Below are positions 1-33,366 of a stretch of DNA of 37,193 nt, in pieces; position 1 is the stretch's first letter; each line of letters opens with the position of its first letter. The stretch comes from Nemertoderma westbladi. Taxonomy: Eukaryota; Animalia; Xenacoelomorpha. A program made the translations under genes and the position numbers. The notes below the pieces were generated by a model that did not search any database, was not told the DNA's origin, and saw only the letters and a program-made list of their open reading frames with translations. The DNA lies in assembly GCA_032718475.1 (NCBI GenBank), contig JAUCBJ010005896.1, positions 1-37,193 on the forward strand, read 5' to 3'.

Positions 1-3000
1 CTGGTAACTGATCTTTTCCTTTAGAAACCTGTCGGATATCTTGTATTTGGGGAGATCAACATGACAGCATGGACAGCATAATTTGACAACATGGACTCGT
101 GCAGATGTTGATGGAGCATCATCACTATGGATCTTTGTCCCGGAGTAACGATGATGAAAACATCGTTTTAAATAGGTAACAGCTTTACAGAGCCGATTCC
201 AGGAACTGTAGTGACGTATCGCTCTCTGCAAGAGAGGTGAGAGTCCTTGCGAGATATCTGGTATTCCAGATTTCCAATCCTTGTCACGGATTTCCAAGAC
301 TTCTTTAGTCGTGGCGGTGGGTTTCTGATCCAAAGCATCCTCTCCGGAAGTAAATAATACAGATAGATCAACCGCAGGTTTAAACAACTTCGATTTACTC
401 GCTCGAGTTTTGGGTTTAACTTTCTCCGCTCCCTTGGCCTGTCTGATCTCTGCTGTTGTGAGATGGGGAGGCCATTCTTCTTCTTCTCTGTAGAGAAAGT
501 CGGGTCCTCCTAACCATTCGGGAGTATTTACCAATTCCTTTGGAGTCGCTCCTCGGGACGCGATGTCTGCTGGATTAATCGTTCCGGGGCAATGTCTCCA
601 TTGGTCCATCGTCGTGCGACTAAGTATGATGGCTACCCTGTTGGTAACGAAGACGCTGAACTGACAGACTTCATTGGTTATATACTCTAACACGAGTAAA
701 GCGTCGGTCCAATAGACAGTTTTCTCTAATGTATAGTCAATCTGTTCGGTTACATTCCGGCCGATGGCTGTAGCGTATAGAGCCGCTTTTAACTCCGCTC
801 GAGGAACTTTCAACTTGTTGTTGATTAATGCCTTAGAAGTAACCAAGGCGACTTTGATTCCATCCGGAGTTTCCACTCTTAGGTAGGCTACTATACCGAT
901 TCCCATATCGCTGGCGTCTCCAAACACATGGAGTTGATAGGAATACGTAGGGAGAACATGACCAAAATATGAACGGGAAATTATAAAATCCTCGATGGCC
1001 GGTAGAGAATCTTCCCATTTCATCCACTTCTTCAATAATTCTCCCTTAAGTGGATCGTCCCATGAGTGGTTTTCAAGCCACATTTGTTGTACCAAACTTC
1101 GAGCAATCAATATAACTGGGCTAATAAATCCCAATGGATCGAAATAAGTGCTCAGTATACTTAAGCAAATCCGTTTGGTTCGAACTGGATTATCTCGCTG
1201 TTTTAGCTGGAAAAACAGGATATCTCGCTCTGTGTCCCATTTCAAGCCGAGTGTCTTGGTTTCTGGCAGATCATCTTTGATCAAATCGAGATCTTTCGCT
1301 CCTCGATCTTCCGCAGGGATCGACTCCAGAAACTCACGGGAGTTGCTGGTGAATTTGGTTAATCGAAATCCACCTCTTTTTAAGCACTCTACCGTTCCCT
1401 TAGCGACCTCAATGGCTTCCTCAACTGATGGGAGGGACTTCAGATTGTCGTCCATGTATATGTCTCTCTTGATGTTGTCGATCACTTCCTTAGAGAATGC
1501 CTCTCGGTTGTCCTCTGCAGTAGTACGCACTACCGAACAGGCGTTGGAAGGGCTTGAGATTATCCCAAAGGCCTGGATGGTCATCCAGTACTCCACCGGT
1601 TTCTGGTTGAGGTCTCCTTCGGGCCACCATAGAAATCGTAAGCTATCTCGATCCCTATCCAACACTTTGACTTGCAAGAACATGCCTTCTATATCGGAGG
1701 CGAAAGCAATCGAATATTGTCTCAATCTTAAAAGAATTCCCAACAAAGATTGAAGTAAGTTGGGTCCGGGTAACAATTCAGAGTTAAGGGATTGACCCAT
1801 GTAAAGAGCGGAGCCATCAAACACTACTCTCACTTCATTGGGCTTACCGGGTTTAGGAACGTAATGGTGAGTTAAATAATACGTTCTTTCAGTCACAGGT
1901 GTTTCTTCCGGTACCCTCTCCGCGTATCCCTTATTAATAAATTTTTCCAGCTGTGTTTGATACATTGCTTTAGCTGAAGAATTAGCCGTAAGGCGTCGAT
2001 GGAGTTGCGCGATTCTTTTTTCCGCCAAAGGTCTGTTATTGATGAACTTCGGTTCTCTCTTGCGAAAAGGTAAACCGACTTCGTATCTTCCTTGATCTTT
2101 GAGGAAACGTGTAGTTGTCTCTTGGATCTGCTTGGCCCTTTCCTCTTCCACCGACAAGGCTTTATCGTAGGAATTGGGCTCTACCGCCTCTTGCGTAAAG
2201 AATCGTACAGCATGTTCATCTCGAGTCTTGGCATTGCAACGCTCAATGACGTCATTTAATTCGTCGTTATAAGCTTCTCGTTCAGATGGATAGAGAAGTT
2301 GACATAAGTTCACTTGGTTTTGCCAAGCCTCGTTTTCCTTAAGGAGATCGATGGTATTCTCCTCATCAAAAAGCTGGTGAACATCGTCGTTATCTGAGGA
2401 GTATGGAATTCCCTCAGTTGAATCGTCTCCCTCACTAGCATCATCTTCCCATTCACTCACCTGGCAGACTCTCTCTTGCGGTAGTCTTTCTCTGAGTGTT
2501 CTACGGGAAGGGCCAGTAAAGTACCAACCTACTCTAGTTCTTACCGCATAGGTCTGTAGGGGCTGCGGTTGAGCAGGCCGTTTCTCTAATGTCTCCAGCG
2601 CCTCATGCGCGTTTTGGCCGATGAGTATTTGCACTCCAGGATAATCAGTCTGGAATCGAGGTATGTTAAGATGTTGGATGCTCTCATCCTCGTCCCAATT
2701 ATAAAGGTCTGCTTGAGTAGTAGCGAAGTTCTTTATAGCCACCATTTTCACTGACCTTATGCTGTTTTCTCCTAGTTCGTCCTGGGGGGTGGACAACGCT
2801 CCTACATAATAATCAGCTGTTATTGTAGATTTCCAAACTTGCATAATGCCTGACATGTTGAGCTTAGTTTGGAACTTGGGTTGTCCAGCAAATATATCTT
2901 CGGCTAACTCTTTATCGATGAATGTTCCTGTGCTGCCGGAGTCCAGGAGGGCGTTCACTACATAACTCCGTTTAGGTCCGTGCACCCTTACCTGCACCAC

Positions 3001-6000
3001 AGGAAACTCTCGGATCCCTACATTGGAAGATGGCTCTTTCCAAGATGGTTGTCGTTCAGAAGTAGTTAGAGTGAAGTCGCTGTCTGTATCCTTTTCATAT
3101 GTGAGTGCTCGATACACTGCGGTATTTATCATGTAACAGGATTCGTTTTCGTCGGAGAACTCATCTGTATAGAATCCTTCCATCTCAGATTGATCAGTGT
3201 CGTTCACATCACTGAATTGGACATGTAGCTCAGAATCACTTACCTGATTCGGACTATTTCGATCGAATTCAGCGTGCAACAAGATATGATGTTTCGCACC
3301 ACACTTTGCACACCTTATGTCAGAGAAACAGGTTCGCCGTTGGTGTCCTTGTCTGAGGCAATTATAACATAACCGCTTATCCCACATGACTTCGCGTCTC
3401 TCTGTTAATGATTTCTTTAGAAATTCATCACACCTATTCAAATGGTGGGTCCCGTCGCACAGTGCACATTTCGGTTTGATGTTACTTACCTTATTTTGAG
3501 TCACATTGTGTACACTTGCCTTTTCTTCGGGCTTTCTCACCTGAATTCTCTTGGGAGACGTGGGAGGAGTTTTTCTTACCTGTTCCCTCCTGTCATTTGT
3601 TCGAGACTTGAATTTACTTACCTGATCTTTAGGCATTTTATTCACGTAATAAGATCTATCCGTGTCCTTCCCGCTATCTTCTCCTTGAGAAGTTTGGCTT
3701 TCGCCGTCATCAGTATAACATACTGGTGTTACCTTTCTCCTAGAGACGGGTTTTTCACTTACCTTGCTTTCCGGTGTCTTCTCTCTGGACAGTTTCAGGA
3801 GCTGTAATTTCACTTCTCCATCTAGGAATGACATGAGATCAGCCATGGTAGGGTCTCGCCGTTGTTGTTCCATCATATATAACACTTTCTTATCCCAGCG
3901 TGTACCTACTCCACCTTTAGGTAAAGTAGAAGCCACTGCTCTAATAACCATAGTGTTCTGATACTCATGAGACTTACCTAGCCAATCTAATTGTCTGCAG
4001 ATCTCCTGGATCTCATCGGAAAACTCGATAATTCCGCTACTAATAAACTTTCGGGGCGCTACTAACTTTGCATACAAGTACCCAGCGATATTATTCCTAT
4101 TACCATACCTGATGTTTAGTGTATCCCAAACTTGTCTTAATCCGTCTGGATGTCCAATAAACTTTAACGCCATTAACTTGGGAGATCCTTCCAAGCACTC
4201 GATGAGGTATCTAAGTTTTTCTCCATTAGATAGTACAGAGTTCTGTATGTTATCTTTGTAATATTCATTAAAAGGTAACCATTTCATCTCATCTCCATTG
4301 AACTTGACGATCTCTCCCACCTTTACCGCTTGCCGGGCTTCGGTTCTAGCCATTTGACGCGTAAAACTTTCTTGGGCCATCGTGTTATTTAATATCGAGT
4401 TATCGGTATATAAATTTCTCGGATTATGATCCGGTCTATAGGGAATATCATTATCAACAGGTCTATAATTACCCTTAATAGGGTTCACTATAGGAGTTTC
4501 TACTTCGCTAGCAGTATAGATGCGTGTAGGCTCCACACCTTGCGCATGAGATACTTCAGACCTAACGGGTTGACACATTGTTACAGAGGGTGGTGGTATA
4601 CCCTTTTTTAAGTTTACTAATTTATCGCGTTCTAACGCGATACTTTGCTGCACTTCTTGCAACTCTAACTTACTTTCCCTCACTGTTCCTTTTAAATGTT
4701 GGACAGTCCCTTCCAACTCTCGGACCTGTTGGGAAGAGCGTATCCGATTCTCCTTCATCTCTCCTAGGAGAATATCCATCCCCCGCCGTCTCTCGTCTAC
4801 CCAATCAACCGCCGAAACGGGATCCGCCAACGTCGTAGCGGGCAGACGAGGGACAACGGGCGACAAATTTGGAATATTTCGCTCGGGGTCCAGGACCTGA
4901 ACTGTCTCCTGGGCAGTTCTACGGGGCACAGGTAGCTTAGTGCTATGCAGAGGGAATTTATAGGTAGCTTCAGGGAGCACAGGTGTATCTATTACCGAAG
5001 GGGTGATTTCAAGAACAGGCCTACTTATTTCAGGCTCATCTACTATAGTAGGGAGTCTTTCTATTGTAATTATTTGGTCTGTGGGTTCTGTACTCTCTAA
5101 GTTGGTGTTATTTAGTTGCCTTCTAACAGCTGGAGGCAAATCAGGCAATTTCTGACGGTGGAATGTTCTTTTACGTCTGCTTAGGCGGGATCGATTTCCT
5201 CCGCCTTCAGTGTCGGTGGTATCGCCTTCCTCAGATGATGTATAACCTTGTCGTTTGGGAGTAGATCGATTCATCATCTGCATATTACTAGCTGTTAACT
5301 GTTTATTAAAGTTATCTTGCCTCTCTTGAAGATTTTCCAACTCTAGTTGGGTTGTCTCTTCAGATGCCCTCCGTTCTGCTTCTGCCACTGCTATCTTTCT
5401 TTCCGCTTCTGCAGCTGCCGCTTTTGCCTCTGCCGCTGCCGCTTTCCTTTCCGCTTCTACGGCTGCAGCTGCCGCTTTTGCCTCTGCCGCTGCCGCTTTT
5501 ATTGCTGCAGCTGCCGCTTTTGCCTCTGCCGCTGCCTCTGCTGCCTTTCTTTCCGCTTCTGCCGCTGCCACTGCCGCTGCTGCTGTCTTTCTATCTTCTA
5601 TACGTTTTTTCCTTACTTGTTCTTCCTTTTCTCTAGCGATGCGGAGTTGTTCATCGAATTTAGCTTGGTTCGCCGCTAACCTATCCACATCAATCGCATC
5701 TAACACAAGTTTGGCTCCTTCGCTATTAGGGCTAAGTCCCTCTAGCCTTCTCCTCAACTCTTCATCTCCCAAAAAACGCTGATAGTCTGACAGATAGATA
5801 TCAATGGCATCCTTCTTATGCGGTTTCTCTGCCGTCGCTTCACTTTCCACTTGGGAAAAAGTAGCGTCCGTCGATTCTCCATGGGTTGAGCGCTCCTCCA
5901 ACTGAGCTTTCCACTGAGCTGCTCCTTGAACCTGGCGTCTCACCCTTTGAAGCCAAGTCTTTACGGCAACTTGCAACGACGTGTCTTGTCTTCTTTTAGA

Positions 6001-6762
6001 AGCCTCCTCAAAGGCGGATAAGATTAGCCTAATTCGCAGAACTCTTTCTCTAACTTGATAAAGCAGCTGTCCCTGCTCTTGAGGTCCTTGAGGTTGTTTA
6101 AACAGTTGTCTTTCTACTCGCTCCATAGAGCTGAAGAATCCCTGTGCGTATCCGGCTGCGGACCTCTTCCATACAGCTGGATCGATGGTTTCCTTGGCTA
6201 CTCCCATCCGGTGTATGTCTTCCCAGGCAGCTTCTGATAAATCAAACGGGAGTCCGGGTCCGGGGAAGTTCCATTGCGACTCGACAATAGACTTCAATTC
6301 TTCCCTCGTGTACCCCGCATAACTATCTCTAGTTGATCGTTGACTCCTCGCCCAATCGATCTGGTGTTCTTCCACCGCGATCAATAACCTAGTGAGTACG
6401 GCTGCAGGAAGGATGAGAAGGGGATCCGTATAAACCGCATCCGTCATCTCTGCTCCGCGCTCGGGTGTCAGCTCTACAGTATCCTCACTACTGGAGCTGC
6501 TGGGCCGCTGAGGAATAAGTTCTTGACTCGCGGGTTGTTGCTGTTCCGCTGCTTCTTGGTCCCGCTTGACCTGAGCTCGAGTGCCTATGATAGACCTACG
6601 ATGTTGGACTAGCCTAGGTTCTGTTATTACTACTGGAGGGATGACCTTCCTCACAGTGGGAGGTGAACTGAATTTACGACCAGACGGTTGTACGTCTCTA
6701 TCTGAGTCGCAGATAGTTACATCTAATATACTGTCTGACAGGTTCTGCTTAGTATCAGACAT
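1..6762 (-). CDS. Single Gag-Pol polyprotein, partial (>=2254 aa): ~660-aa N-terminal extension, Gag (DUF1759-like + 3 zinc knuckles), aspartic protease, RT, RNase H
   Basis: ATG at 6762 (MSDTKQNLSD...). Motifs checked by hand all fall in this frame: knuckle CYNC (3369), LLDSGSTG (D at 2943), FASDIEGMFLQV (D at 1695), IYMDD (Y at 1458), FDPLGFISPV, LHVFGDAS (D at 918), PRAEL, YWTDA, NPADIASRG. The ORF track lists no stop-terminated ORF in this frame, consistent with it running off the window. Integrase is expected beyond base 1. Confidence 0.9.
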   Translation of the reverse strand, partial: MSDTKQNLSDSILDVTICDSDRDVQPSGRKFSSPPTVRKVIPPVVITEPRLVQHRRSIIGTRAQVKRDQEAAEQQQPASQELIPQRPSSSSSEDTVELTPERGAEMTDAVYTDPLLILPAAVLTRLLIAVEEHQIDWARSQRSTRDSYAGYTREELKSIVESQWNFPGPGLPFDLSEAAWEDIHRMGVAKETIDPAVWKRSAAGYAQGFFSSMERVERQLFKQPQGPQEQGQLLYQVRERVLRIRLILSAFEEASKRRQDTSLQVAVKTWLQRVRRQVQGAAQWKAQLEERSTHGESTDATFSQVESEATAEKPHKKDAIDIYLSDYQRFLGDEELRRRLEGLSPNSEGAKLVLDAIDVDRLAANQAKFDEQLRIAREKEEQVRKKRIEDRKTAAAAVAAAEAERKAAEAAAEAKAAAAAIKAAAAEAKAAAAAVEAERKAAAAEAKAAAAEAERKIAVAEAERRASEETTQLELENLQERQDNFNKQLTASNMQMMNRSTPKRQGYTSSEEGDTTDTEGGGNRSRLSRRKRTFHRQKLPDLPPAVRRQLNNTNLESTEPTDQIITIERLPTIVDEPEISRPVLEITPSVIDTPVLPEATYKFPLHSTKLPVPRRTAQETVQVLDPERNIPNLSPVVPRLPATTLADPVSAVDWVDERRRGMDILLGEMKENRIRSSQQVRELEGTVQHLKGTVRESKLELQEVQQSIALERDKLVNLKKGIPPPSVTMCQPVRSEVSHAQGVEPTRIYTASEVETPIVNPIKGNYRPVDNDIPYRPDHNPRNLYTDNSILNNTMAQESFTRQMARTEARQAVKVGEIVKFNGDEMKWLPFNEYYKDNIQNSVLSNGEKLRYLIECLEGSPKLMALKFIGHPDGLRQVWDTLNIRYGNRNNIAGYLYAKLVAPRKFISSGIIEFSDEIQEICRQLDWLGKSHEYQNTMVIRAVASTLPKGGVGTRWDKKVLYMMEQQRRDPTMADLMSFLDGEVKLQLLKLSREKTPESKVSEKPVSRRKVTPVCYTDDGESQTSQGEDSGKDTDRSYYVNKMPKDQVSKFKSRTNDRREQVRKTPPTSPKRIQVRKPEEKASVHNVTQNKVSNIKPKCALCDGTHHLNRCDEFLKKSLTERREVMWDKRLCYNCLRQGHQRRTCFSDIRCAKCGAKHHILLHAEFDRNSPNQVSDSELHVQFSDVNDTDQSEMEGFYTDEFSDENESCYMINTAVYRALTYEKDTDSDFTLTTSERQPSWKEPSSNVGIREFPVVQVRVHGPKRSYVVNALLDSGSTGTFIDKELAEDIFAGQPKFQTKLNMSGIMQVWKSTITADYYVGALSTPQDELGENSIRSVKMVAIKNFATTQADLYNWDEDESIQHLNIPRFQTDYPGVQILIGQNAHEALETLEKRPAQPQPLQTYAVRTRVGWYFTGPSRRTLRERLPQERVCQVSEWEDDASEGDDSTEGIPYSSDNDDVHQLFDEENTIDLLKENEAWQNQVNLCQLLYPSEREAYNDELNDVIERCNAKTRDEHAVRFFTQEAVEPNSYDKALSVEEERAKQIQETTTRFLKDQGRYEVGLPFRKREPKFINNRPLAEKRIAQLHRRLTANSSAKAMYQTQLEKFINKGYAERVPEETPVTERTYYLTHHYVPKPGKPNEVRVVFDGSALYMGQSLNSELLPGPNLLQSLLGILLRLRQYSIAFASDIEGMFLQVKVLDRDRDSLRFLWWPEGDLNQKPVEYWMTIQAFGIISSPSNACSVVRTTAEDNREAFSKEVIDNIKRDIYMDDNLKSLPSVEEAIEVAKGTVECLKRGGFRLTKFTSNSREFLESIPAEDRGAKDLDLIKDDLPETKTLGLKWDTERDILFFQLKQRDNPVRTKRICLSILSTYFDPLGFISPVILIARSLVQQMWLENHSWDDPLKGELLKKWMKWEDSLPAIEDFIISRSYFGHVLPTYSYQLHVFGDASDMGIGIVAYLRVETPDGIKVALVTSKALINNKLKVPRAELKAALYATAIGRNVTEQIDYTLEKTVYWTDALLVLEYITNEVCQFSVFVTNRVAIILSRTTMDQWRHCPGTINPADIASRGATPKELVNTPEWLGGPDFLYREEEEWPPHLTTAEIRQAKGAEKVKPKTRASKSKLFKPAVDLSVLFTSGEDALDQKPTATTKEVLEIRDKDWKSGIPDISQGLSPLLQRAIRHYSSWNRLCKAVTYLKRCFHHRYSGTKIHSDDAPSTSARVHVVKLCCPCCHVDLPKYKISDRFLKEKISYQ

Positions 6763-6849
6763 GACTATGTATACCGTTGAATGTCTACTGCTGTATTACA
6801 GTCTGAGTAAGTCTAGTAACACAGTATTAACTGCTAGCCTAATAATTAA

Positions 6850-7225: not shown

Positions 7226-8623
7226 AATTATTTTAAATAACTGAATTTCTGAATTTTAAGGGTTACTTGGTTACTTTAACTTACTTTATTACCGTTATTT
7301 AAGCAGTAGTCCAACTGATATTGAGACCTAATGGTTATATGGTAGGCCTACTATTTATAAATCGTTAGATTTGATTTATAATATATATATACCCGTTTTA
7401 ATGGGTTTTGTCAATGTTTGAAATAAATGTTATTATTTCTGGGGAGTAATCACTACACAAAGCGGTGCGCTTTCAGTGAAGTGTTACTTATAGGACACTA
7501 AAACAAATAATTCTAATTTACCTAAGTTACTTAATACTACAAATTACGTACAATTCGGGTTGAGATTACAATCTCTAAATAAACACAAAAATTTACAAAA
7601 ACACAAAATACGAATTTTTAGGGTAATTTTACAAGAAGTCTACAAACCAGTCTAACAAAGGGTTAGAAAACTGGTTATTACAACGGACAGGGTACTACGG
7701 TATTTGAAATAATAAGTAGTAGTAAATACACTGCGTTGTCCAGATAGAAAAATACCACCGCCTGACGACCTATAGCCGTATCGCTATAGGTTCTACGTTA
7801 TGTATCACGGAGTGTTCCTACCTAGAAGTTAATAGAGCTAATCGAACGTGCCTATTAACCACTTTACACCACAAATGTAATGCCTACAATAATTACTTTC
7901 GGAAAGCACTGTACACTAAACCCTAAATTAGGTACGAGTACTTGTACAACAGATAATCAGTAGTTAAATATACTTGAACAGCTAAAAGAACCACGGCATC
8001 TGCTGGAGTGACCGATGCACAAAATCACCAGTCTTTACCTACGCCAAGCAGCCCGTGTAGTACCGGGGTTAATTTAACTATAGTGGTATGTATAACAAAC
8101 ACAATTACTGTAGGAACAAACTTGGGGAATGAATGTTGCGAATAATCGCATAAACTCTGAATAATAAATATTACGCTACGCGTACAAACTACTCAAACAA
8201 AATGCAGACCGAACACTGACAGACTACTCTCAAGCCTAAATAAACTACAGGACATGCAGACTCCGAAATGATTAGGGAGTATGCGTTCTAACCCAGTAGT
8301 ACGACTTATTCTTTAGTTGGGGGTTTACCTTACAGCATTCGCTGCCCCTACTTCCTAACCGTACTTAATCGGACAGATGATCTACACACACTGCAATCCG
8401 TTCGGACTTAACAGCAATCAGACAACAGCTCAGCCTACAGATTGTCTGTACAATCTGATCAGGCTTACACGCCTTCTGTTCAATACTGGCCTACAAATAA
8501 ATAAAACTTGACAGAAATAAGTAAACCATATAAAGGAATAAGGGGTGATCAATCCCTAATCCCTTAAACAGCCTACCGGTATACAACAATCAAATCGAAT
8601 AATACTAGTGTACTTATACGGTA

Positions 8624-8747
8624 GTACCGGTTAGAACAGCTAGGCCTACGGACCTACAGAAGTACCGGTTCTGTCAGTTGGACCTACGGACCTACGGCAG
8701 TACCGGTTCTAGCGGTTGGGCCTACTGACCTACAGATGTACCGGTTC
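8624..8747. repeat. 38-bp tandem repeat (~3.3 copies) in leader of A
   Basis: GTACCGGTT...CCTAC..ACCTAC units start at 8624, 8662, 8700 and 8738. Confidence 0.85.
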
Positions 8748-8802
8748 AGGTTTACCGGTTGACCGGTACTTTCAACTTTATTGCTTACTGCAATAAAGAA
8801 GC

Positions 8803-8814
8803 TATATCCTTTAA
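8803..8814 (-). promoter_or_regulatory. Primer-binding-site position of A (TTAAAGGATATA), non-tRNA, complementary to LTR 9570..9581
   Basis: Directly abuts the LTR 3' CA and does not start with TGG. It is a 12/12 reverse complement of an internal LTR site. Confidence 0.75.
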
Positions 8815-10023
8815 TGTTCGCGCTTTCAGACCTTTGGCAGTTTAACCCGCCAAATTAAGATGTCTTCTAGATATTAAATCGCTTTTTAGCCTATGACAAG
8901 TATTTGATTCACTACACTAGTCGAAACCAATCTGTGCGCGACCATTCACCCGCTGGATATTCCCGGGAGATTGGGTTCGACGGTTTAATTTTATTGCTAT
9001 GTAAGCCTAATGTATTATTCGACTGACAGTATTATATAATCTCTGACAATATTATTCACCTTCGGGAATATTAACAGTTCCTTTAGGACGTGGCGCTTTA
9101 TCTATATAAACAGAGTTATGACTTAAACTACTCACAACGATATGGCTTAATTATAATTCACATATATGGCGCATTCTTTAGGAAATGCTTCTTTAACAGA
9201 CTCACTCATACGCAATGCTGCACAATACTGCACACTAATCTGCCAATCTTCACTGATTTTAGTCACATATAAAAGGAACACAGACTGACTCATGTAGGGT
9301 CTATCAAATAACATTAGATTCACTTCAAACCACTTTAACATAAGTCACAATCGTTATTGGTAACCTTTCTCTCTTACCTTCGGTATATCAAGAATATTGG
9401 GTGTCGGGGTCATTTCTCGTTATTCCAATATAATAATTCATCAACAAATATAATGAATAACCGACAACAAATAGCAGTATGCAGTATTCACAGATCAATC
9501 GTGCCAGTTTGTTTTGAGTTAAGACAATCAGTCAGGTGCGTCAAATGCGAGTTAAATGCGTAATTGCAGTTAAAGGATATATGTCCTTATAATTAAACCT
9601 ACTAGTGTTGAGCTAAAAAGCAGAAAACATAAAACACTACAAAGCCGTTCTTTCGTGGCTTTGAAAAACTCGTGACTACTGCTCTATACGAGGATACCAA
9701 CTACCCTTATTCCACGAAGCTCCCGTTCAACACAGAGAAAGAGCAGTGAGATAGGAAAATTTCAGTTCAGTAGCTCTGTGATAGGTCAAAATCAAGGCTA
9801 ACTCAAATTCTATTGGGAGATACAAAAACAAGGCTATGACGCAACCTCCCTAGGCTTGTTGGCCGATTAAACAGAGCCCAGATGCCTGCGTACAGCAAAT
9901 CAGCCAATAAGCTGGTAACTTGCACTATTTTTAGCTATAGATCCCTTTTGAGAGTATTCTAGCGACTGGGGGGGAACTGGCCAACAAGGCGAACGAATCA
10001 GTTATCCCACAAAAGCTTTTACA
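8815..10023 (-). repeat. 5' LTR of element A (1209 bp)
   Basis: On the element strand it starts TGTAAAAGCTTTTG and ends AAAGCGCGAACA, the same termini as B and C. The 3' part is clearly alignable; the first ~400 bp are diverged. Confidence 0.92.
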
Positions 10024-10298
10024 GCTATGCTGCCGACTACAACGACAATAACTGAATTTTATTTACTCATTCTATTTATTTATTTATATTCTACAGTAGA
10101 TAGCCATACTACATAACATTGACGATTGACCCGTCCCAGTAACCCTTTAATTATACTTGTTCGTTTAACATTATTGCATTTTAATATATTAGGACGGATG
10201 CGATTGGTGTATTTTGCGTTAATGTAATTATTTTATTAACTCTTGTCAATAAAATATATAATATATACTGTATGGGGTCTTTTGTTACCCTGGACCAA

Positions 10299-11486
10299 TG
10301 TAAAAGCTTTTGCGGATATAACCAGTCATTTCTCCGCAATGTACCGTGTAGGTGCTTTTAGCGGACATAACAAGCCATTTTTGCCCGTTATGTCTGTATG
10401 CGTGCTTTAGCGGACATAACTAGCCATTCTGCCGCAATTCGCTTAATACTCTAAAAGATGACTCAGATGACGCAATCTGTCAGCTGATTTAATGCCAGCG
10501 TGGAGCTTTTCTTTGTTCTTTGTTCGGCTCACTCGACCAATCAGAGCGATTTTCACTTTGTGTTGACCAGTGCATACAGAAACCCACGCAATTCAGTCAG
10601 TGTGTATCTTTCTAAGCCCAGAACACCGGCTTAGGATTCTTCTGTACTTCTGTGGAAGTTTCAGACTTTGACCTAAACCTCAGAAACATCAGATGGCTTT
10701 GATTAAAGAAACGTAAAACTATTAATGCAGCACACCGCCACATCGCGGCATTATTTTACGCAATTATTTTACACATTACGCAACGCGATTCAACTACACA
10801 TACTGACTGTTCACCGCATTATTTGATTCTGTTATTAATTGGTGTTACTGTGTTATGTTGGTATATATTGCTGATATATTTGGAGAATACCGATGAATAA
10901 TCATAAAACCCTCAATCTCTTTGATTACTAAAGGTTAGAGGAACAGGTTTACCGGTAGCAACTGCGACTTACATTATAGTGGTTTTTGTGTGAATTGAAT
11001 GCTATTTCATAATCCCTACATGTGTCAGTTGCGATCCTCCTTATATATGATCAAATTCAGTGATGGTCGGCAGATCAGTGCGCAGTAGTGTGAACTAGTG
11101 TGAAGTCGTGTGAAGTAGTGTGAAGGTTAATAAAGCATTTCCTAAAGAATGCGCCTTTTACGAAACTCAGTAGCCATCCAGTTGTGATTAGTATAAGTCA
11201 TAACTCTGTTTTATACTTAAAGCGCCACGTCCTAAAGGAACTGTTAATATTTCCCCGAAAGTAAATATATTGTCAGAGATTATATATTAACGATCAATCG
11301 AATAATACAGTAGGTCTACACTGCAATCACTATCAAAGCATCCGAATCCAGTCTCCCTTAACTGTGGGTGAATGGTCGCGTACAGGCTGGCTTCGGCTGA
11401 TGTACCTTCAGTACATTAAATAATTGATATACAAAAAGACACCTAAAATTGGCAGGTAAACTGCTAAAGGTCTAAAAGCGCGAACA
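10299..11486 (+). repeat. 5' LTR of element B (1188 bp)
   Basis: Direct repeat of 21866..23029. By eye about 10 substitutions, one 1-bp indel and one 25-bp indel (10754..10778). Confidence 0.97.
10459..10541 (+). promoter_or_regulatory. Candidate U3 enhancer motifs: AP-1 TGACTCA (10459), TGACGCAA (10468), CCAAT box (10537)
   Basis: Consensus matches. GACCAATCAG and TGACGCAA also occur in LTR C, and TGACGCAA in LTR A (opposite orientation), although U3 is otherwise diverged. Confidence 0.45.
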
Positions 11487-11497
11487 TTAATAGTTTT
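11487..11497 (+). promoter_or_regulatory. Primer-binding-site position of B (TTAATAGTTTT), non-tRNA, complementary to LTR 10715..10725
   Basis: Directly abuts the LTR 3' CA and has no TGG. It is an 11/11 reverse complement of AAAACTATTAA, present in both LTRs. Confidence 0.75.
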
Positions 11498-13070
11498 TAA
11501 ATTCTGATTGCAGCGTAGGCAATAAATATTTTGTCTATTGTTCTGGTAAGAACAATAATAGATTTTTAGATTCTTTATTGCACCGTAGGCAATAAATTCG
11601 AATGTACCGGTCGGACGGTAAACTGTAGGCCTAACTGCCTAAACACCCGAACCGGTACTTACAGGTACAGCAGTATTATTCGATTTTGATAATTATATAC
11701 CAGTAGGTCTTGATATCTAATCAGGGACGCCTGATTTTTATTGGGACTTTACTTATTTCTGTCAGTTTTATTTATTCGTAAGTGTAATGTTGAGCAGAAC
11801 TGCAGAAGGCGTGTAAGCCTGCTCAGATTGTATAAATAATTTGTAGGCTGGATTGTTGTCTGACTGTTGTTAAGTCTGAAGAGATTGCAGTGTGTGTAGA
11901 GTGTATGTCCGATAAAGTGCTAGTTAGGAAGGTAGGGGCATCCAGTGTTGTAAGGTAAATCCCCCCCGAAAGAATAAGTCGTACTACTCGGTTAGAACGC
12001 ATACTAACTAACCATTTCGGAGTCTGCATATACTGTAGTTTATTTAGGCTTGATAGTAGTCTGCCAGCGTTTGGTTTGTATTTTGTTTGTGTAGTCTGTA
12101 CGGGTAGCGTAACATTTATTATTCAGAGTTTATGCGATTATTCGCAACATACACAACCATAAGTTTATTCCTACAGTAATTGTGCTTGTTATACATACCG
12201 ATATAGTTAAATTAACCCCGGTACTACATCAGGGCTGTTTGGCGTAGGTAAAGACTGGTGATTTTATGCTCTAGTCACTCCAGCAGATACCGTGGTTCTT
12301 TTAGCTGTACAAGTATTTTTAACTGCTGGTTATTTGTTGTATAAGTACTTGTACCTAATTTAGGGTTTAGTGTACAGTGCTTTCTGAAGGTAATTAGTTT
12401 GAAGGCAGTATATTTGTGTTGTAAAGTGGTTAATAGGCACGTTAGCTATGGTTGGCTGCGGTAATTAACTTCTAGGTAGGAACACTCCGGGTACATAACG
12501 TAGTACTTATAGAGCTGCAAGCTAGAGACTATAAGTCGTCAGACGGTGGTATTTTCTTATCTAGACAACGCAATATATTTACTACTGCTTAATTATTTTC
12601 AAATACCGTAATATCCTGTCCGTTGTAATAACCAGAAATTCTAACCCCTTGTTAGGCTGGTTTGTAGATTTCTTGTAAAATTACCCCTAAAATTTGTACG
12701 TGTAATTTTTGTGTTTATTTAGAGATTGTAATCTCACCCCTTAATTGTACGTAATTTGTAGTAATAAGTAACTTAGTAAATTAGAATTATTTGTTTTAGT
12801 GTCCAACAAGTGGCACTTCACTGAGAGCGATCAGCTTCTGTGTAGTGACTCCTCACCAGAAATAATAACATTTATTTCAAATATTGTCAAAAACCCATTA
12901 TAAGGGTATATATATATTATAAATCAACTCAAACTGATTTATAAAATAGTAGGCCTGTCATACATCAATTAGGTCTTAATATCAGTTGGACTACTGCTTA
13001 ATAACAGTAATAAAGTAAAGGAAAGTAATCCTAAAATTCAGAAATTCAGTTATTCTAAAATAATTGACAT

Positions 13071-13330: not shown

Positions 13331-13466
13331 TAATATATTATATATATATCACGTTACACTGAGTAATGGTATCGGTAATTAATTACTAGGCTTATAGTTG
13401 ATACTGAATTACTAGACTTGCTTTAACTGTAGTTATAGTAGTAGGCATTCAACTGTACAATCAAAC

Positions 13467-15512
13467 ATGGCTGACACAAAACAAACACCATCAGATAGTC
13501 TCTTTGAAAGTGTTAGAACGAGTGTTAGACAGGGTCTTAAAAAGATCTGGGACTCAGCTAAGAGTATAGAACGTCTGAGACCAAAGTCCAAGTCCCCTCC
13601 TACTGTAAGAAAGGTCATCCCTACAGTAGTAGTGTCAGACCCTAGGCTAGTAGAGCACCATAGGTCTATCATAGGCACTAGGGCTCAAGTCAAGTGGGAC
13701 CAAGAGGCAGCTGTTAAACAGCAGCAACACCCGAGCCGAGAACCTATTTCTCAGCGGTCCGATAGCTCCAGTAGTTCAGATACTGTAGAGTTGACACCCG
13801 AGCGCGGAGCAAAGATGGCAGAAGCAGTTTATTCGGATCCACTTCTCATTCTTCCTGAAGCCGTACTCACTAGAGTATTGATTGCGGTGGAAGAACATCA
13901 AATGGATTGGGCGAGAAGTAAGCGATCGACCAAGGACAGTTATGCGGGATACACGAAGGAGGAACTGAAGTCTATTGTCGAGACGCAATGGAATTTCCCC
14001 AGACCCGGACTCCTATTTAACTTATCGGAAGCTGCCTGGGAGGACTTATACAGGATGGGAGTGACAAAGGACACTAGTGATCCAGCTGTGTGGAAGAGGT
14101 CGGCAGCAGGATATGTACAGGGATTCTTCAGCTCTTTGGAGCGATTAGAGGAACAACTGTTTCAACAACACCAAGGAGCTCAAGAGCAGGGAGATCTGCT
14201 TTATCAAGTTCGAGTAAGAATCCTAAGAATCAGACTACTCCTATCAGCCTTTGAGGAAGCTTCGAAGAGAACCCAAGACACGTTGTTGCAAGTTGCTGTC
14301 AAGACTTGGTTCCAACGGGTGAGTCTCAAGGTTCAAGGAACGACCCAATGGAAAATTCAGCTAACTGAGCGCTCAACCCACGGAGACTCAACAGACGCTA
14401 CCTTTTCTCAAGTGGAATGTGAAGCGACATCAGAGAAACCTCAGAAGAAGGATGCCATTGACATCTATCTGTCAGACTATCAACGATTTATAGGTGACGA
14501 AGAGTTGAGGAGACGGCTGGCTGGACTTAGCCCTAATAGTGAAGGAGCCAAGTTTGTGTTGGACGCATTAGATGCGGAAATGTTAGCTGCGAACCAAGCT
14601 AAATTTGATGAAAGCATCCGCATCGCTAGGGTCCAAGAAGAACAAGTAAAGAAAAAACGTATAGAAGACAGAAAGACAGCAGCAGCGGCAGCGGCAGAGG
14701 CTGAAATAAAAGCGGCAGAAGTGGAAAGAAAAGCGGCAGTGGCAGCGGCAGAAGCGGAAAGAAAAGCGGCAGAAGTGGAAAGAAAAGCGGCAGTGGCAGC
14801 GGCAGAAGCGGAAAGAAAAGCGGCAGAAGTGGAAAGAAAAGCGGCAGTGGCAGCGGCAGAAGCGGAAAGAAAAGCGGCCGAAGCGGAAAGAAAGGTAGCA
14901 GTGGCAGAAGCAGAACGGAGGGCGTCTGAAGAGACCACCCAACTAGAGTTGGAAAATCTTCAAGAGAAGCAAGACTACTTAAATAAACAGATAACAGCTA
15001 GTCAGATGCAGATGATAAGTCGATCTACTCCCAGGAGACAGGGATTTACATCATCTGATGAAGGCAATACAACAGATCCTGAAGGCGGAGGAAATAAATC
15101 TCGTTCCAGCGGACGTAGAAGGGCGCTGCACCGGCAGAAATTGCCTGATTTGCCTCCAGCCGTGAGAAGGCAACTAGCTAGTGTAGATTTGAGTAATCCT
15201 GCGCCTACAGACCAAATTATTAGGGAAGAAAGACTCCCTACTATAGTAGATGAGCCTGAAATAATTAGGCCTGTTCTCGAAGCCTCTCCCTCTGTGATAG
15301 AGACCCCTGTACTTCCAGAACCTAACTCTAAATTCCCTTTGCACAGTACTAAACTACCAGTAAATAAACAGATAACCAGTAGAATAGGCCCTGAATCCGC
15401 CCCAGTCCTGGACGCCGAGCAGGACATCAACGATTTGTTGCCCGTCGTCCCTCGTCTACCCACTACTATGTTGGCGGCTCCCGCTTCGGCGGTCGAGTGG
15501 GTGGATGAGTGA
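13467..15512 (+). CDS. ORF1 of element B, 681 aa; homolog of the N-terminal extension of A's polyprotein; Ala/Glu/Lys coiled-coil repeats
   Basis: Open ORF that aligns with A 6762..4780. The 18-aa unit AAEVERKAAVAAAEAERK occurs three times. No known domain recognised. Confidence 0.85.
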   Translation: MADTKQTPSDSLFESVRTSVRQGLKKIWDSAKSIERLRPKSKSPPTVRKVIPTVVVSDPRLVEHHRSIIGTRAQVKWDQEAAVKQQQHPSREPISQRSDSSSSSDTVELTPERGAKMAEAVYSDPLLILPEAVLTRVLIAVEEHQMDWARSKRSTKDSYAGYTKEELKSIVETQWNFPRPGLLFNLSEAAWEDLYRMGVTKDTSDPAVWKRSAAGYVQGFFSSLERLEEQLFQQHQGAQEQGDLLYQVRVRILRIRLLLSAFEEASKRTQDTLLQVAVKTWFQRVSLKVQGTTQWKIQLTERSTHGDSTDATFSQVECEATSEKPQKKDAIDIYLSDYQRFIGDEELRRRLAGLSPNSEGAKFVLDALDAEMLAANQAKFDESIRIARVQEEQVKKKRIEDRKTAAAAAAEAEIKAAEVERKAAVAAAEAERKAAEVERKAAVAAAEAERKAAEVERKAAVAAAEAERKAAEAERKVAVAEAERRASEETTQLELENLQEKQDYLNKQITASQMQMISRSTPRRQGFTSSDEGNTTDPEGGGNKSRSSGRRRALHRQKLPDLPPAVRRQLASVDLSNPAPTDQIIREERLPTIVDEPEIIRPVLEASPSVIETPVLPEPNSKFPLHSTKLPVNKQITSRIGPESAPVLDAEQDINDLLPVVPRLPTTMLAAPASAVEWVDE

Positions 15513-15520
15513 CGGCGGGG

Positions 15521-17473
15521 ATGGATCTCCTGCTCGGGCAGATGCAGGAGACTGTTCAACAGTTCAAGGGAACAGTAAGGGAAAGTAGGTTAGAGTTGCA
15601 AGAAGTGCAGCAGAGTATCGCGTTAGAATGCGACAAATTAGTAAATACACAAAAGGGTACACCACCGCCCCCTGTAACAATGTGTCAACCTGTTAGGTCT
15701 GAAGTATTTCATGCGCAAGGTGTGGAGCCTACACGCATCTATACTGCTAGTGAAGTAGAAACTCCTATAGTAAACCCTATTAAGGGTAATTATAAACCTG
15801 TTGACAATGATATTCCATATAGACCTGATCATAATCCGAGAAATTTATATACCGATAACTCGATATTAAATAACACGATGGCCCAAGAAAGTTTTACGCG
15901 TCAAATGGCTAGAACCGAAGCCCGTCAAGCGGTAAAAGTGGGAGAGATCGTCAAGTTCAATGGAGATGAGATGAAATGGCTACCTTTTAATGAATATTAC
16001 AAAGATAACATACAGAACTCTGTACTATCTAATGGAGAGAAACTTAGATTCCTCATCGAGTGTTTGGAAGGACCTCCCAAGTTAATGGCGTTAAAGTTTA
16101 TTGGACATCCAGATGGATTAAGACAAGTTTGGGATACACTAAACATCAGGTATGGTAATAGGACAAACATAGCTAGGTATTTGTATGCAAAATTGGTAGC
16201 ACCCCGAAAGTTCCTTAGCAGCGGGATTATAGAGTTTTCCGATGAGATTCAGGAGATCTGTAGACAATTAGACTGGTTGGGTAAGTCTCATGAATACCAG
16301 AATTCCATGGATGTAGGAGCCTTAGCATCAGCTTTACCAAAGAGTGAAGTGGGTACTCGCTGGGACAAAAAGGTTCTCTATTTGATGGACCAACAACATA
16401 GAGATCCAACCATGACGGACCTTCTGTCATTCTTAAACCGAGAGGTAAGATTACAACTCCTAAAACAGTCTAGAGAGATGACTCCTGAAAGTGAGGTAAG
16501 TGAAAAACCAGTTTCTAGGAGAAAGGTAACACCAGTGTGTTATACAGACGATGGCAAAGACCAAACCTCCCACGAGGAGAACAGCGGGAAAGACACCGAA
16601 AGATCTTATTATGTCAACAAAGTACCTAAAGACGTAAGTAAATTTAAGTCTCGAACCAGTGACAGGAGAGAACAGGTAACAACAAATTCTCCTACGTCTC
16701 CTAAAAGAATTCATGGAAGAAAGCCCGAGGAGAGAACAAGTGTGCACAACACCACACAAGGTAAGGTAAGTAACATCAAGCCCAAATGTGTATTGTGTGA
16801 CGGGCCCCATCGCTTGAGTGGGTGTGATGAATTCTTAAAGAAATCCCTAAAGGATAGACGTGATGTCATGTGGGATAAGCGGTTGTGTTATAATTGTCTC
16901 AGACGAGGACACCAACGGCGGACCTGTTACTCAGATGCTAGGTGTGCTAAGTGCGGCGCGAAACATCATATCTTGCTGCACACAGAATTTGAAAGAACCC
17001 GCACGAGTCAGGTAAGTGAGCCCGAACTACATGTCCAATTCAGTGATGTGAACGACACTGACCAAAGTTCTGAGATGGAAGGATTCTACACGGATGAATT
17101 CTCCGACGAAAACGAATCCTGTTATCTAATAAACACCGCAATGTATCGAGCACTTACGTATGAGACTGAAACCGATAGTGAGCTCCCCCTAACTATTCCG
17201 GACCGACAACCATCTCGGAAAGCGCCAACTTCCAACATAGGAATCCGGGAATTTCCCGTAGTGCAGTTGAGAGTCCACGGGTTAAAAAGGAGCTATATAG
17301 TGAACTCCCTCCTTGACTCCGGCAGCACAGGAACCTTCATCGACAAAGAACTAGCCGAAGACATCTTTGCTGGACAACCCAAGTTCCGAACTAAGTTGAA
17401 CCTTTCAGGAATTATGCAGGTTTGGAAATGCTACAGACTACTATGTAGGCGCGTTGTCCACCCCCCAGGATGA
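15521..17473 (+). CDS. gag: Gag of element B with truncated protease
   Basis: DUF1759-like segment (KFNGDEMKWLPF...EKLRFLIECLEG), BEL/Pao triple knuckle (CVLCDGPHRLSGC, CYNCLRRGHQRRTC, CAKCGAKHHILLH), and LLDSGSTG. An ~8-nt deletion near 17430 frameshifts the protease. First ATG is at 15521 (the track starts at GTG 15509). Confidence 0.88.
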   Translation: MDLLLGQMQETVQQFKGTVRESRLELQEVQQSIALECDKLVNTQKGTPPPPVTMCQPVRSEVFHAQGVEPTRIYTASEVETPIVNPIKGNYKPVDNDIPYRPDHNPRNLYTDNSILNNTMAQESFTRQMARTEARQAVKVGEIVKFNGDEMKWLPFNEYYKDNIQNSVLSNGEKLRFLIECLEGPPKLMALKFIGHPDGLRQVWDTLNIRYGNRTNIARYLYAKLVAPRKFLSSGIIEFSDEIQEICRQLDWLGKSHEYQNSMDVGALASALPKSEVGTRWDKKVLYLMDQQHRDPTMTDLLSFLNREVRLQLLKQSREMTPESEVSEKPVSRRKVTPVCYTDDGKDQTSHEENSGKDTERSYYVNKVPKDVSKFKSRTSDRREQVTTNSPTSPKRIHGRKPEERTSVHNTTQGKVSNIKPKCVLCDGPHRLSGCDEFLKKSLKDRRDVMWDKRLCYNCLRRGHQRRTCYSDARCAKCGAKHHILLHTEFERTRTSQVSEPELHVQFSDVNDTDQSSEMEGFYTDEFSDENESCYLINTAMYRALTYETETDSELPLTIPDRQPSRKAPTSNIGIREFPVVQLRVHGLKRSYIVNSLLDSGSTGTFIDKELAEDIFAGQPKFRTKLNLSGIMQVWKCYRLLCRRVVHPPG

Positions 17474-18524
17474 ACTAGGAGAACACAGTATAAGGTCAGT
17501 AAAAATGGTGGCGATAAAGATCTTCGCTACCAGCCAAGTGGAACCTTATAACTGGGATGAAGACGATTTCACCCAGCAGCATGAGATACCTAGATTCAAC
17601 ACCGACTACCCAGGGGTACAGATACTCATCGGCCAAAATGCGCATGAGGCGCTTGTGACATTAGAGAAACGGCCTGCTCGACCGCAACCATTGCAAACCT
17701 ATGCGGGAAGAACAAGAGTAGGTTGGTACTTCACTGGACCTTCCCGTAGGACACTCATGGAAAGGCTACCCAAAGATCAGGCCTATCAGGTGAGTGAATG
17801 GGAAGAAGACATCAGTGAGGGAGAGACAACCACCAACTGAGGGAACACCATACTCCTCAGATAATGACGATATTAACTCTAATGTAGATCAATGGAGACA
17901 TTGCCTTGGACGATTAATCCAGCCGCCATCGCTTCCAGAGGAGCAACCCCTCAAGAACCGATAGATACTCCGGACTGGTTAGGTGGACCCGACTTCCTAA
18001 GTAAAGAAGAAGATGAATGGCCTCCCCATCTTACCACGGCTGAGATCAGACAAGCCAAGGGAGCGGAGAAAGTCAAACCTAAAACCCGGACGAGTAAATC
18101 AAAGTTATTTAAACCCGCGATTGATATGTCTGTACTACACATTTCAGGGGACGACGCTGTGGGTCTAAACTCCCCCGCCACAAATAACTCTGTTGTGGAA
18201 ATCAGAGAAAGAGACTGGAAATCTGGAATACCAGACGTCTCGCAGGGATTCTCACCTCTCCGGCAGGGAGCGATAAACCACTATAGCTCCTGGAATCAGC
18301 TTTGTAAGGCCGTCGTGTATTTGAAGCGATGTTTCTATCGTCACTATTCCAGGACGAAGAGGAAACCTGGAATTGTATTCGAAACACAACAACTCAATCG
18401 CCCAGTTGGTCGTTTATGTTTACTGGAAAGAGACCGAGAACTGTCCGGAAACTATGGAAGGCAAGATACTCTTCCCACGACCACCTCCCTAATCCAACAA
18501 ACATCTAGGGACTCCCCAACGTAA
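17430..18524 (+). pseudogene. pol: pol remnant: protease C-half, RNase H tail, integrase C-terminal tail
   Basis: VQILIGQN sits in a shifted frame. A junction at ~17875 joins A-equivalent ~2375 to ~610, removing RT and most of RNase H. NPADIASRG has become NPAAIASRG. A second junction at ~18358 leads to LNRPVGRLCLLE, which resembles the BEL/Pao integrase C-terminal (DUF5641-type) motif. Confidence 0.88.
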
Positions 18525-21777: not shown

Positions 21778-21857
21778 GAAGGACTAACTGTTTAGAGTAT
21801 TTTTATATTTTAGAAACTGTGATTTTTTATATTTTATAGAATTAAATCCCATTTTCT

Positions 21858-21865: not shown

Positions 21866-23029
21866 TGTAAAAGCTTTTGCGGATATAACCAGTCATTTCT
21901 CCGCAATGTACCGTGTAGGTGCTTTTAGCGGACATAACAAGCCATTTTTACCCGTTATGTCTGTATGCGTGCTTTAGCGGACATAACTAGCCATTCTGCC
22001 GCAATTCGCTTAATACTCTAAAAGATGACTCAGATGACGCAATCTGTCAGCTGATTTAATGCCAGCGTGGAGCTTTTCTTTGTTCTTTGTTCGGCTCGCT
22101 CGACCAATCAGAGCGATTTTCATTTTGTGTTGACCAGTGCATACAGAAACCCACGCAATTCAGTCAGTGTGTATCTTTCTAAGCCCAGAACACCGGCTTA
22201 GGATTCTTCTGTACTTCTGTGGAAGTTTCAGACTTTGACCTAAACCTCAGAAACATCAGATGGCTTTGATTAAAGAAATGTAAAACTATTAACGCAGCAC
22301 ACCGCCACATCGCGGCATTACGCAACGCGATTCAACTACACATACTGACTGTTCACCGCATTATTTGATTCTGTTATTAATTGGTGTTACTGTGTTATGT
22401 TGGTATATATTGCTGATATATTTGGAAAATACCGATGAATAATCATAAAACCCTCAATCTCTTTGATTACTAAAGGTTAGAGGAACAGGTTTACCGGTAG
22501 CAACTGCGACTTACATTATAGTGGTTTTTGTGTGAATTGAATGCTATTTCATAATCCCTACATGTGTCAGTTGCGATCCTCCTTATATATGATCAAATTC
22601 AGTGACGGTCGGCAGATCAGTGCGCAGTAGTGTGAACTAGTGTGAAGTCGTGTGAAGTAGTGTGAAGGTTAATAAAGCATCTCCTAAAGAATGCGCCTTT
22701 TACGAAACTCAGTAGCCATCCAGTTGTGATTAGTATAAGTCATAACTCTGTTTTATACTTAAAGCGCCACGTCCTAAAGGAACTGTTAATATTTCCCCGA
22801 AAGTAAATATATTGTCAGAGATTATATATTAACGATCAATCGAATAATACAGTAGGTCTACACTGCAATCACTATCAAAGCATCCGAATCCAGTCTCCCT
22901 TAACTGTGGGTGAATGGTCGCGCACAGGCTGTCTTCGGCTGATGTACCTTCAGTACATTAAATAATTGATATACAAAAAGACACCTAAAATTGGCAGGTT
23001 AAACTGCTAAAGGTCTAAAAGCGCGAACA
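21866..23029 (+). repeat. 3' LTR of element B (1164 bp)
   Basis: Direct repeat of 10299..11486, followed by TSD ACCAA. Confidence 0.97.
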
Positions 23030-31499: not shown

Positions 31500-33366
31500 T
31501 TAGCTAAGTTATTTCGCTGAGGCATTGACATGGTCCCAATTTCTTGAGAGTCACTCTACGACGTTCTTTAAGAATCGTGAAGCTTCCCTCCCTGGAACAC
31601 TATCTACCGAATATAACGTAGGTGTAAAGTTCTTGCTTCACAAACACGCTGGTACTTACGGGACGTGGCTGCTTCAGACTCATCGAGATCAGAACCTTGT
31701 GTTCGCGCTTTTGAAGACCTTTGGCAGTTTAACCCGCCAAATCTATATGTCTTCTAGGTTATAAATCTACTCCAGCCTATGACAAGTATTGAACACCTAT
31801 AATAATTCTAACATTAGCCAAAGCCAGTCTGTGCGCGACCATTCACCCGCTGGATATACCCGGGAGACTGGATTTGGATGCTTTAATTTGATTGCGGTGC
31901 AGGCCTACCGTACTATTCGATTGATCGTTAATATATAATCTCTGACGAATATTATTCACTTTCGGGAAATATTAGCAGTTCCTTTAGGACGTGGCGCTCT
32001 ATCTATTTAAACAGAGCTATGACTTACACTATACACAACAGTATGTCTTATAGATCACCAAAGTGCATTCTTTAGGAAATGCTTTGTTACTCGGTCAAGC
32101 ACACACAGACTATTGCACACAACTGCACACTGAATTGCCGACATTCACTGATTTTAATCATATATAAAGAGAATAACAACCGACATTTGTAGGGCCTATT
32201 AAGTAGCATTGAACTCACTACAAACCACGATAATGTATGTCGCAAATTGTTATATGTAACCGGTCTCTCTAACCTTAGTGTATCAAGAAGATTGGGTTTT
32301 CGGATCGTTATCAATATTCTTCCCAATAATAATATGTAAACGAACGATACAATTAACAACACAGTAAATAGCAGTAAATAATGCGGCGAAAAGCAGTTTA
32401 CGTCAGGGTGCTTAATCAGATGCCGAGTTGACCAAGTTAACCGAGACCGAGATAACAGTTTGATGATCTTATAATTAAAGACGCTCTAATGTCAGAAAAC
32501 ATTCCCCGGCCGGTGTTCTAGGCGTGGGGGAAACGTCAGTACTGAATCCTGTAATTCTGCTGTACAGCTTTTACACAAAGAGGGAAACTCTGATTGGTCG
32601 AAAAGCAAAAAGCTCCACGTGGACACAGCTGATAGATGTCGTCATTTTGAGCTGAGCAGAACAAAGAACCAAGGCAAGGCTCCGGGCAAGCTACACGTGT
32701 AAAGCTCAGCCGTTAGCTGTCGTCATAGTAACGACACTGTTTCAAGAGGATCTAGGGCGTTGCGTCATAGAATTGCTAATTATGTCCTCTAAAGTACACA
32801 TACAGAAGAAATAGCTTTTATGTCCCCTAAAAACACCGGTACAGCAATGACACGGCCTTTTATGCCTGCTAAACCAACTACAGAGTACTTTACGGGGAAA
32901 ATAACCGGGCAATTCCGCAAAAGCTTTTACACCTTGAGCTTGAAGTCATACAGCGCCTCGGTCTGTGGTTGCCAGACACCTCATACCCTCAGATCTCCAC
33001 ACAGTCCGGTGTCACCAATTGCCTCATTAGGCTCACAGATAATAAGATTATAAGATAATAAGATTTGTATCTTAATGAACACTAGACCTGCTGATTTCTC
33101 ATGTGCATCGCGAACCTCATAGTGACGCCTTATCACCAAACATCATACTTTACAGTTTAGAGCCTGATCGACTGAGAGATTCGCCACACCCATCCATCAC
33201 AATGCGAAGGAAGAGCATCCAGTGTGGGAGCGTAGGCATACCTGAGGTTCGGTTGAACTGTGAATCCTCTCGATGGGCAGAACTCATAGCCATGAAGATG
33301 TTTTTCCTTCACTGAGCTCTCAATCGCCTTAACCTTCGCGGGGTCTTGAGGAAAAATGAAGTACAA
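31500..33366 (-). pseudogene. Highly decayed Ty3/gypsy-like pol fragment interrupted by solo LTR C
   Basis: DPAKVKAI and a downstream WVW resemble the gypsy RT thumb/connection, and LYDFKLK at the insertion site resembles the end of gypsy RNase H. Very degenerate. Confidence 0.3.
31700..32931 (-). mobile_element. Solo LTR (element C, 1232 bp) of the same BEL/Pao lineage
   Basis: Same termini (TGTAAAAGCTTTTGCGG...AAAGCGCGAACA). 5-bp TSD CCTTG at 31695..31699 and 32932..32936. No internal sequence. Confidence 0.95.

Follow-up and report, generated by a model that had tools for sequence, protein, structure and literature searches.

Pairing between the primer-binding site and the LTR points to self-primed reverse transcription in a BEL/Pao retrotransposon family of Nemertoderma westbladi

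Self-priming, in which the RNA of an LTR retrotransposon supplies its own primer in place of a host tRNA, has been demonstrated in Tf1; for related Ty3/gypsy elements and one plant copia lineage it has been predicted. In Tf1, the RNA pairs its 11 leading bases with the primer-binding site (PBS); RNase H cuts between nucleotides 11 and 12 (available part of PMC7175516); the available parts of two further papers describe Tf2 and the Tj1 element of S. japonicus in the same way (PMC4600332, PMC5341516). For plants, the accessible part of PMC6317226 predicts self-priming in Tcn1 chromoviruses and in the TAR (Houba, Osr-1) copia elements, its criterion being at least 10 nt of LTR complementary to a sequence that lies 0–5 nt past the LTR. 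The ICTV describes the Belpaoviridae as tRNA-primed, with an 18-nt PBS for host tRNA-Arg or tRNA-Gly (PMC8742986). A term search of the available text of four BEL/Pao surveys (PMC3118150, PMC554778, PMC6238403, PMC8556966) found no passage on primer sites, and BEL/Pao self-priming is not described in the accessible parts of PMC3601003, PMC8220671, PMC6934838 and PMC13524379. No paper on it was found in the literature searched, most subscription journals, Repbase entries and supplements lying outside the scope of that search.

The window considered here, meaning the whole stretch of DNA that was analysed, is 37,193 nt of contig JAUCBJ010005896.1 from Nemertoderma westbladi (Xenacoelomorpha). 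It holds two elements of one BEL/Pao family, A and B, arranged head to head with a 275-nt spacer, and a solo LTR of the same family, C (Table 1). Like Tf1, Tf2, Tj1 and the Tf1/sushi group of Ty3/gypsy elements, as the available text on these presents them, A and B are without a tRNA PBS and have a PBS that complements about 11 nt of their own LTR. However, the Tf1/sushi elements belong to Ty3/gypsy, whereas A and B are BEL/Pao elements in an animal host; the loop in A and B is about 750 nt within a 1.2-kb LTR, and their RNA start and primer cut are only predicted. Relatives of A and B depart further from Tf1 in that their primer is split by an intron. The Tcn1 and TAR elements show complementarity by the same criterion, including outside Ty3/gypsy, but they have plant hosts and belong to other superfamilies, and the available part of their description mentions no intron-split primer (PMC6317226). 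With the Belpaoviridae (Semotivirus), A and B share DUF1759, Peptidase_A17, the PR-RT-RH order, LTRs of 1.2 kb and a 5-bp target duplication, but not the 18-nt tRNA-Arg or tRNA-Gly PBS of the ICTV description, which is absent from A, from B and from all 11 relative families discussed below.

Table 1. Positions in the window of the features of elements A and B and solo LTR C.
Feature	Position	Strand	Remarks
Element A 5' LTR	8815..10023	-	1209 nt, TG...CA; 3' LTR beyond window
Element A PBS	8803..8814	-	12 nt, abuts LTR, without TGG
Element A LTR site complementary to PBS	9570..9581	-	Predicted self-primer; predicted +1 at 9580
Element A AT-rich conserved motif	9586..9597	-	16 nt ahead of site; probably not TATA
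Element A predicted stem, 5' arm	8936..8943	-	Pairs with LTR end 8823-8818 beside PBS
Element A hairpin	8776..8798	-	Directly 3' of PBS; from sequence and fold
Element A gag-pol frame	1..6795	-	2264 aa, open at window edge
Element B 5' LTR	10299..11486	+	1188 nt
Element B AT-rich conserved motif	10698..10708	+	17 nt ahead of site
Element B LTR site complementary to PBS	10715..10725	+	Predicted self-primer; predicted +1 at 10715
Element B PBS	11487..11497	+	11 nt, without TGG
Element B gag-protease frames and RNase H remnant	13416..18524	+	RT region deleted
Element B 3' LTR	21866..23029	+	Same site at 22282-22292
Solo LTR C	31700..32931	-	Third site version at about 32463-32452; no PBS alongside

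The host genome is highly rich in the family, a 2.9-kb stretch being matched by 4,364 to 17,455 contigs in three DNA runs. Element B is flanked by the 5-bp duplication ACCAA (10294-10298 and 23030-23034) and C by its own, CAAGG; the two LTRs of B differ by 10 substitutions in 1163 aligned bases. Around the A-B spacer (10020-10298), contigs of 680 and 694 nt (X2 and X3) match only its middle part and have different flanks, while one 328-nt X1 contig crosses both spacer junctions unaltered. These contigs suggest that insertions A and B are both polymorphic and recent. The 5' third of the A LTR (9600-10023) aligns poorly with B (10299-10700) or C, and the corresponding parts of B and C have a CCAAT box, the word TTCAGT and an 11-nt word in common; it is possible that the U3 region of the A LTR has been replaced. 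Elsewhere in the window, B contains a repeat with a spacing of 229 nt (19062-19453), and an unbroken 435-aa frame with a fibrinogen C-terminal domain (25263-26570, E 4e-40) marks a host gene between the elements. Two long inverted repeats (34474-35351 and 35836-36683), 91-99% alike, resemble DNA transposons of the foldback or MITE type.

The protein content is that of BEL/Pao. The frame of A matches PF05380 (Peptidase_A17, E 6.7e-36) and PF03564 (DUF1759), and its translation has three zinc knuckles, a protease DSG, an RT YMDD (1779-1782) and RNase H-type acidic residues (D1959, E2000, D2030 and D2076), the catalytic residues being assigned by motif. This is a Gag-Pol with BEL/Pao-type domains in the order PR-RT-RH, and PF05380 recurs nearly throughout the best 120 protein matches. 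The LTRs, of about 1.2 kb, with TG...CA ends and a target duplication, fit the 0.2-1.2 kb given for Belpaoviridae. Judged by protein, then, A and B are BEL/Pao elements. Membership of the Tf1/sushi group, which carries a Ty3/gypsy chromovirus polyprotein, is ruled out by the BEL/Pao domains. Close protein relatives were absent from the databases searched, the best identity being 42-44%, and in the RT tree A forms a long branch (best identity 44%). Element A leaves the window ahead of any integrase. In B, neither an integrase nor any other homologue was found at 18300-21900 with 240 homologous BEL/Pao proteins as queries, and the two short frames in the 3.5 kb at 18360-21865 have no Pfam match. 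From its sequence, B is a non-autonomous element, with the RT deleted and an integrase not found. The Gag N-terminus is very long, with about 830 aa ahead of DUF1759, and includes an Ala/Glu/Lys-rich tandem repeat of variable length (5326-5577 and 14663-14932).

Over all 11 nt, the PBS of B at 11487-11497 matches the reverse complement of 10715-10725 without exception; in A, 8814-8803 likewise matches that of 9581-9570 over 12 nt. Both matches had been reported in a first-pass annotation of this DNA, together with the lack of a TGG-type tRNA PBS in either element, and both statements were verified here. From the end of the site to the end of the LTR there are 755 nt in A, 761 and 737 nt in the 5' and 3' LTRs of B, and 752 nt in C. 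Each site is preceded by the AT-rich motif, which occurs exactly four times in the window, once per LTR, so the sites can be taken as homologous; their common place behind a shared motif is thus as originally described. A comparison of the two PBSs shows 4 differences in 11 nt, or 5 in 12, where five of 11 had first been counted. All four differences are mirrored in the LTR sites, and position 12 is paired in A only. That each PBS fits its own LTR also stands, matches to the LTRs of the other elements being only 5-6 nt long. Pairing halts at the LTR edge in A and in the 3' copy of B, in agreement with the earlier account. The 5' copy of B has two extra pairs owing to the base at 10726, which is contradicted by essentially all contig depth in three DNA runs (100%, 97% and 100%). 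Depth in the X1 contigs is about 13-fold higher at 10709 than at 10726, and contigs skip or break right after the site, a pattern consistent with subfamily-specific sequence beyond a conserved motif. Although the family has yielded just two primer/PBS pairs (n=2), the comparison indicates that element-specific, covarying pairing between PBS and LTR is real in a BEL/Pao clade without tRNA primer sites.

Could such pairing be an accident, or a leftover inverted repeat without a role? Both sequences are AT-rich, the LTR of B also holds a complement to 6 of the 1,230 internal 11-mers of that element that are AT-rich, and A and B, being of common ancestry, are not fully independent. When the LTRs were shuffled with dinucleotide composition preserved, an equally long match arose in 4 of 5000 cases for B and 2 of 5000 for A; internal 11-mers with a complement in the element's own LTR number 12 of 10,289 in B and 4 of 8,788 in A. 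Chance would not readily account for the identical LTR position, the four mirrored changes and the end of pairing at the LTR edge, and the same relation between PBS and LTR recurs in 9 of 11 distant families (see below), all of which makes an accidental origin barely credible.

A host RNA is another candidate. Since the ICTV calls the Belpaoviridae tRNA-primed, a tRNA fragment or another small host RNA might serve as the primer, in which case the helix between PBS and LTR would mask the PBS and have a role in regulation or packaging. Against this, the PBS lacks TGG and varies between A and B and among all the relative families, each time tracking its own LTR, whereas a constant PBS would be expected with a fixed host primer; this explanation is accordingly quite improbable. 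ARAGORN found no tRNA genes in the window, and no Rfam family matched 8600-11450 at E<=1. Taken together, the PBS and LTR comparisons make it highly probable that the A and B elements prime reverse transcription with RNA derived from their own LTR and not with a tRNA.

Where does the RNA begin? A search for sequencing runs that contain this stretch listed no RNA run; all 7 runs consist of contigs, which do not show starts or ends, and the single run suspected of being RNA (X5) gave 94 matching contigs with no information on starts. In 14 of 20 families, the first paired base is the A of a pyrimidine-A step or the base just ahead of it (local background 25%, P about 3e-5), in a post hoc test on related rows comprising 18 junction-positive relative families plus A and B. 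(For one locus, L055, the donor differs between this test and the 15-locus test described below, and the outcome is negative either way.) The commonest pairing length across families is 11 nt. A pyrimidine-A at the start of pairing fits a transcription start at that point and primers of 11 nt, as in Tf1, and the signal favours position 9580 as the +1 of A and position 10715 as that of B, with 11-nt primers in both. The starts near 10715 and 9581 put forward in the first-pass annotation agree with this signal, except that in A the start more likely falls at 9580. The AT-rich motif probably does not act as a TATA box, and the B version of it contains no TATA. A TATA-like word near -30 occurs in just 2 of 18 relatives, so the odd spacing of the motif in A and B is not strong counter-evidence. 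Seven of 8 relatives have hexamers resembling poly(A) signals downstream of where the primer ends, as a model with a 5' cut requires; A and C have such hexamers about 575-580 nt downstream, and B does not have them at the same place.

On these grounds, the geometry of Tf1, in which the first 11 nt of the element RNA would be the primer, is the probable one. Self-priming by another geometry is unlikely, though it deserves weighing: the primer could carry a long 5' extension, or could come from the site copy in the 3' LTR, either at the poly(A) end or by cutting of a second RNA in the particle. In B and C, a CCAAT box and TTCAGT stand 51-55 nt apart, 83-178 nt upstream of the site, and could mark an earlier start; in A and C, TATAAG lies about 10 nt ahead of the site, and if this were a TATA box the start would fall downstream of the site. 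An ATTAAA lies 23 nt before the site end in B, where it could speak for a poly(A) end, but it is absent from that position in A and C. With no intron in it, the 3' LTR copy could, moreover, pair just as readily with the PBS as its 5' counterpart. The start of pairing at a pyrimidine-A and the length of about 11 nt across families argue against these variants, as do the poly(A)-like signals of the relatives, which fall downstream of the primer end.

Predicted folds agree with the Tf1-like geometry under limited conditions. For an RNA starting at the site, minimum-energy folding predicts the helix between site and PBS in A at each of three temperatures and in B with one RNA length. The predicted helix vanishes from A when 20 nt are added upstream and from both elements with 120 nt, and in B extending the RNA at its 3' end lowers it to 0.27; the B duplex is weak (-7.5 kcal/mol). 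Tf1 reportedly needs a U5-IR-like stem beside the PBS, and folding predicts for A, B and C a short stem closing on the LTR end beside the PBS. Its pairs are nearly invariant, so covariation lends it no support, and a consensus fold of the three LTRs (covariation term +1.03) gave no support for a conserved long-range structure. The 5' arm of the hairpin after the PBS resembles a splice acceptor in A and B alike. In the leader of B (11500-11600), some 70 nt with this hairpin among them are duplicated, and some contigs skip the duplicated segment.

A search with an RT-RNase H alignment gave 92 related loci, in metagenome contigs and in contigs filed under bacterial genomes; these relatives share about 40% RT identity. 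Thirteen contigs of the latter kind (L080-L092) code for BEL/Pao RT relatives, and in several of them both LTRs are complete. Contigs so filed are probably host DNA, and in the case of L080-L092 probably animal host DNA inside bacterial assemblies. Seventeen of the 92 loci, those in which a repeat ends on either side of pol, entered the LTR-end test; most of the loci beyond the test sets showed no LTR pair. Removal of L049, L064 and L068, in which the repeat end is not a clear LTR end, and of the near-duplicates L004, L072 and L091 left 11 families. A search for the LTR-end DNA pattern gave no matches in metagenome contigs, and a pattern search of viral contigs gave 53 matches, none of them a relative.

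None of the 11 families, in all of which the LTR end is fixed by both repeats, has a TGG-type PBS, and none has a contiguous match of 10 nt between PBS and LTR. Nine of them have a predicted GT-AG intron within the LTR whose exon-exon junction the PBS complements over 10-15 nt, against a null of 0-3 in 300. The donors are mostly GTAAG or GTGAG and the acceptors pyrimidine-rich. Only 2 of 156 cross pairings among families reach 10 nt, one of them between sister families, and between L082 and L084, which are sister families, PBS and exon end change in concert. The two misses are L003, with a truncated LTR (its family member L007 scores 11), and L083, which has a single junction mismatch when read by eye. 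A weaker set of 15 further loci, for which the LTR start is known and the LTR end was picked by the match itself, gave a junction match in 10 (null 0-2 of 15 shuffles each), the misses being L023, L037, L051, L062 and L075. The predicted first exons are only 3-10 nt long in L006, L022, L036, L039, L056, L065, L076, L082, L084 and nine more, a shortness that counts against the pyrimidine-A start. A comparison of PBS and LTR in relatives, proposed in the first-pass annotation, has thus come out in favour of LTR-derived pairing, and the self-priming interpretation given there is still the best reading, strengthened by the missing TGG and the nine junction pairings. As a trait of this lineage, self-priming is supported as well; it is not private to the lineage, but likely spans a wide marine BEL/Pao group in which the primer would mostly be spliced.

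Elements A and B have a junction score of 0 and contiguous matches of 12 and 11 nt, respectively. A concealed splice-junction primer was looked for in both and rejected: the best candidate in B is 7 nt long and was equalled in 89-90 of 100 shuffles, A has none, and both score 0 under stricter splice rules. A donor-like AAG|GTWAGA is conserved about 190-210 nt past the site, but an intron spliced there would vanish from progeny LTRs. A point against the Tf1-like geometry is the loop, which at 737-761 nt in the A and B LTRs is far longer than the 44-176 nt of the relatives. In the RT tree, A and B sit on a long branch within a group of 41 rows (SH-aLRT 95) that contains all 18 junction families; a junction-type clade excluding A is nevertheless not rejected by the AU test (p-AU 0.47), so the intron may have been lost in A and B or gained in the other families.

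We propose the following scheme. Transcription would start at the pyrimidine-A that heads the site (9580 in A, 10715 in B), and the first 11 nt would fold back across an R-U5 loop of roughly 750 nt onto the PBS, beside the predicted stem at the LTR end. RT/RNase H would then cleave after nucleotide 11, and the new 3'-OH would prime minus-strand DNA at the edge of the LTR. During plus-strand synthesis, as expected from the general LTR cycle, the primer would be recopied into the PBS, which would keep site and PBS in step during drift. Element B, having no RT, would rely on a helper. The relatives would follow the same scheme with a primer assembled over a spliced intron, A and B representing the intron-free form; because the cut falls downstream of that intron, the unspliced 3' copy would be the source from which progeny LTRs receive it. 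The pairing in A and B is, by analogy, one that works like that of Tf1 without membership of the Tf1/sushi group, and convergence with Tf1 is likely. For the branch as a whole, we incline to the view that a broad marine group of Belpaoviridae abandoned tRNA priming and that most of its families splice a primer on the 11-nt scale, from a first exon of 3-10 nt and the start of exon 2, so that only the spliced 5' copy primes; the A/B family would be an intron-free look-alike of Tf1, reached independently and with a loop of about 750 nt.

If this is true, a third LTR superfamily self-primes, and does so in animals, and the description of the Belpaoviridae needs to be changed. It would also account for an expected failure of PBS finders on such elements, and it predicts that they may escape silencing by 3' tRNA fragments, which act via the PBS. 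The occurrence of contiguous and intron-split primers in one clade would allow tests of how self-priming arose and of what part splicing plays in it.
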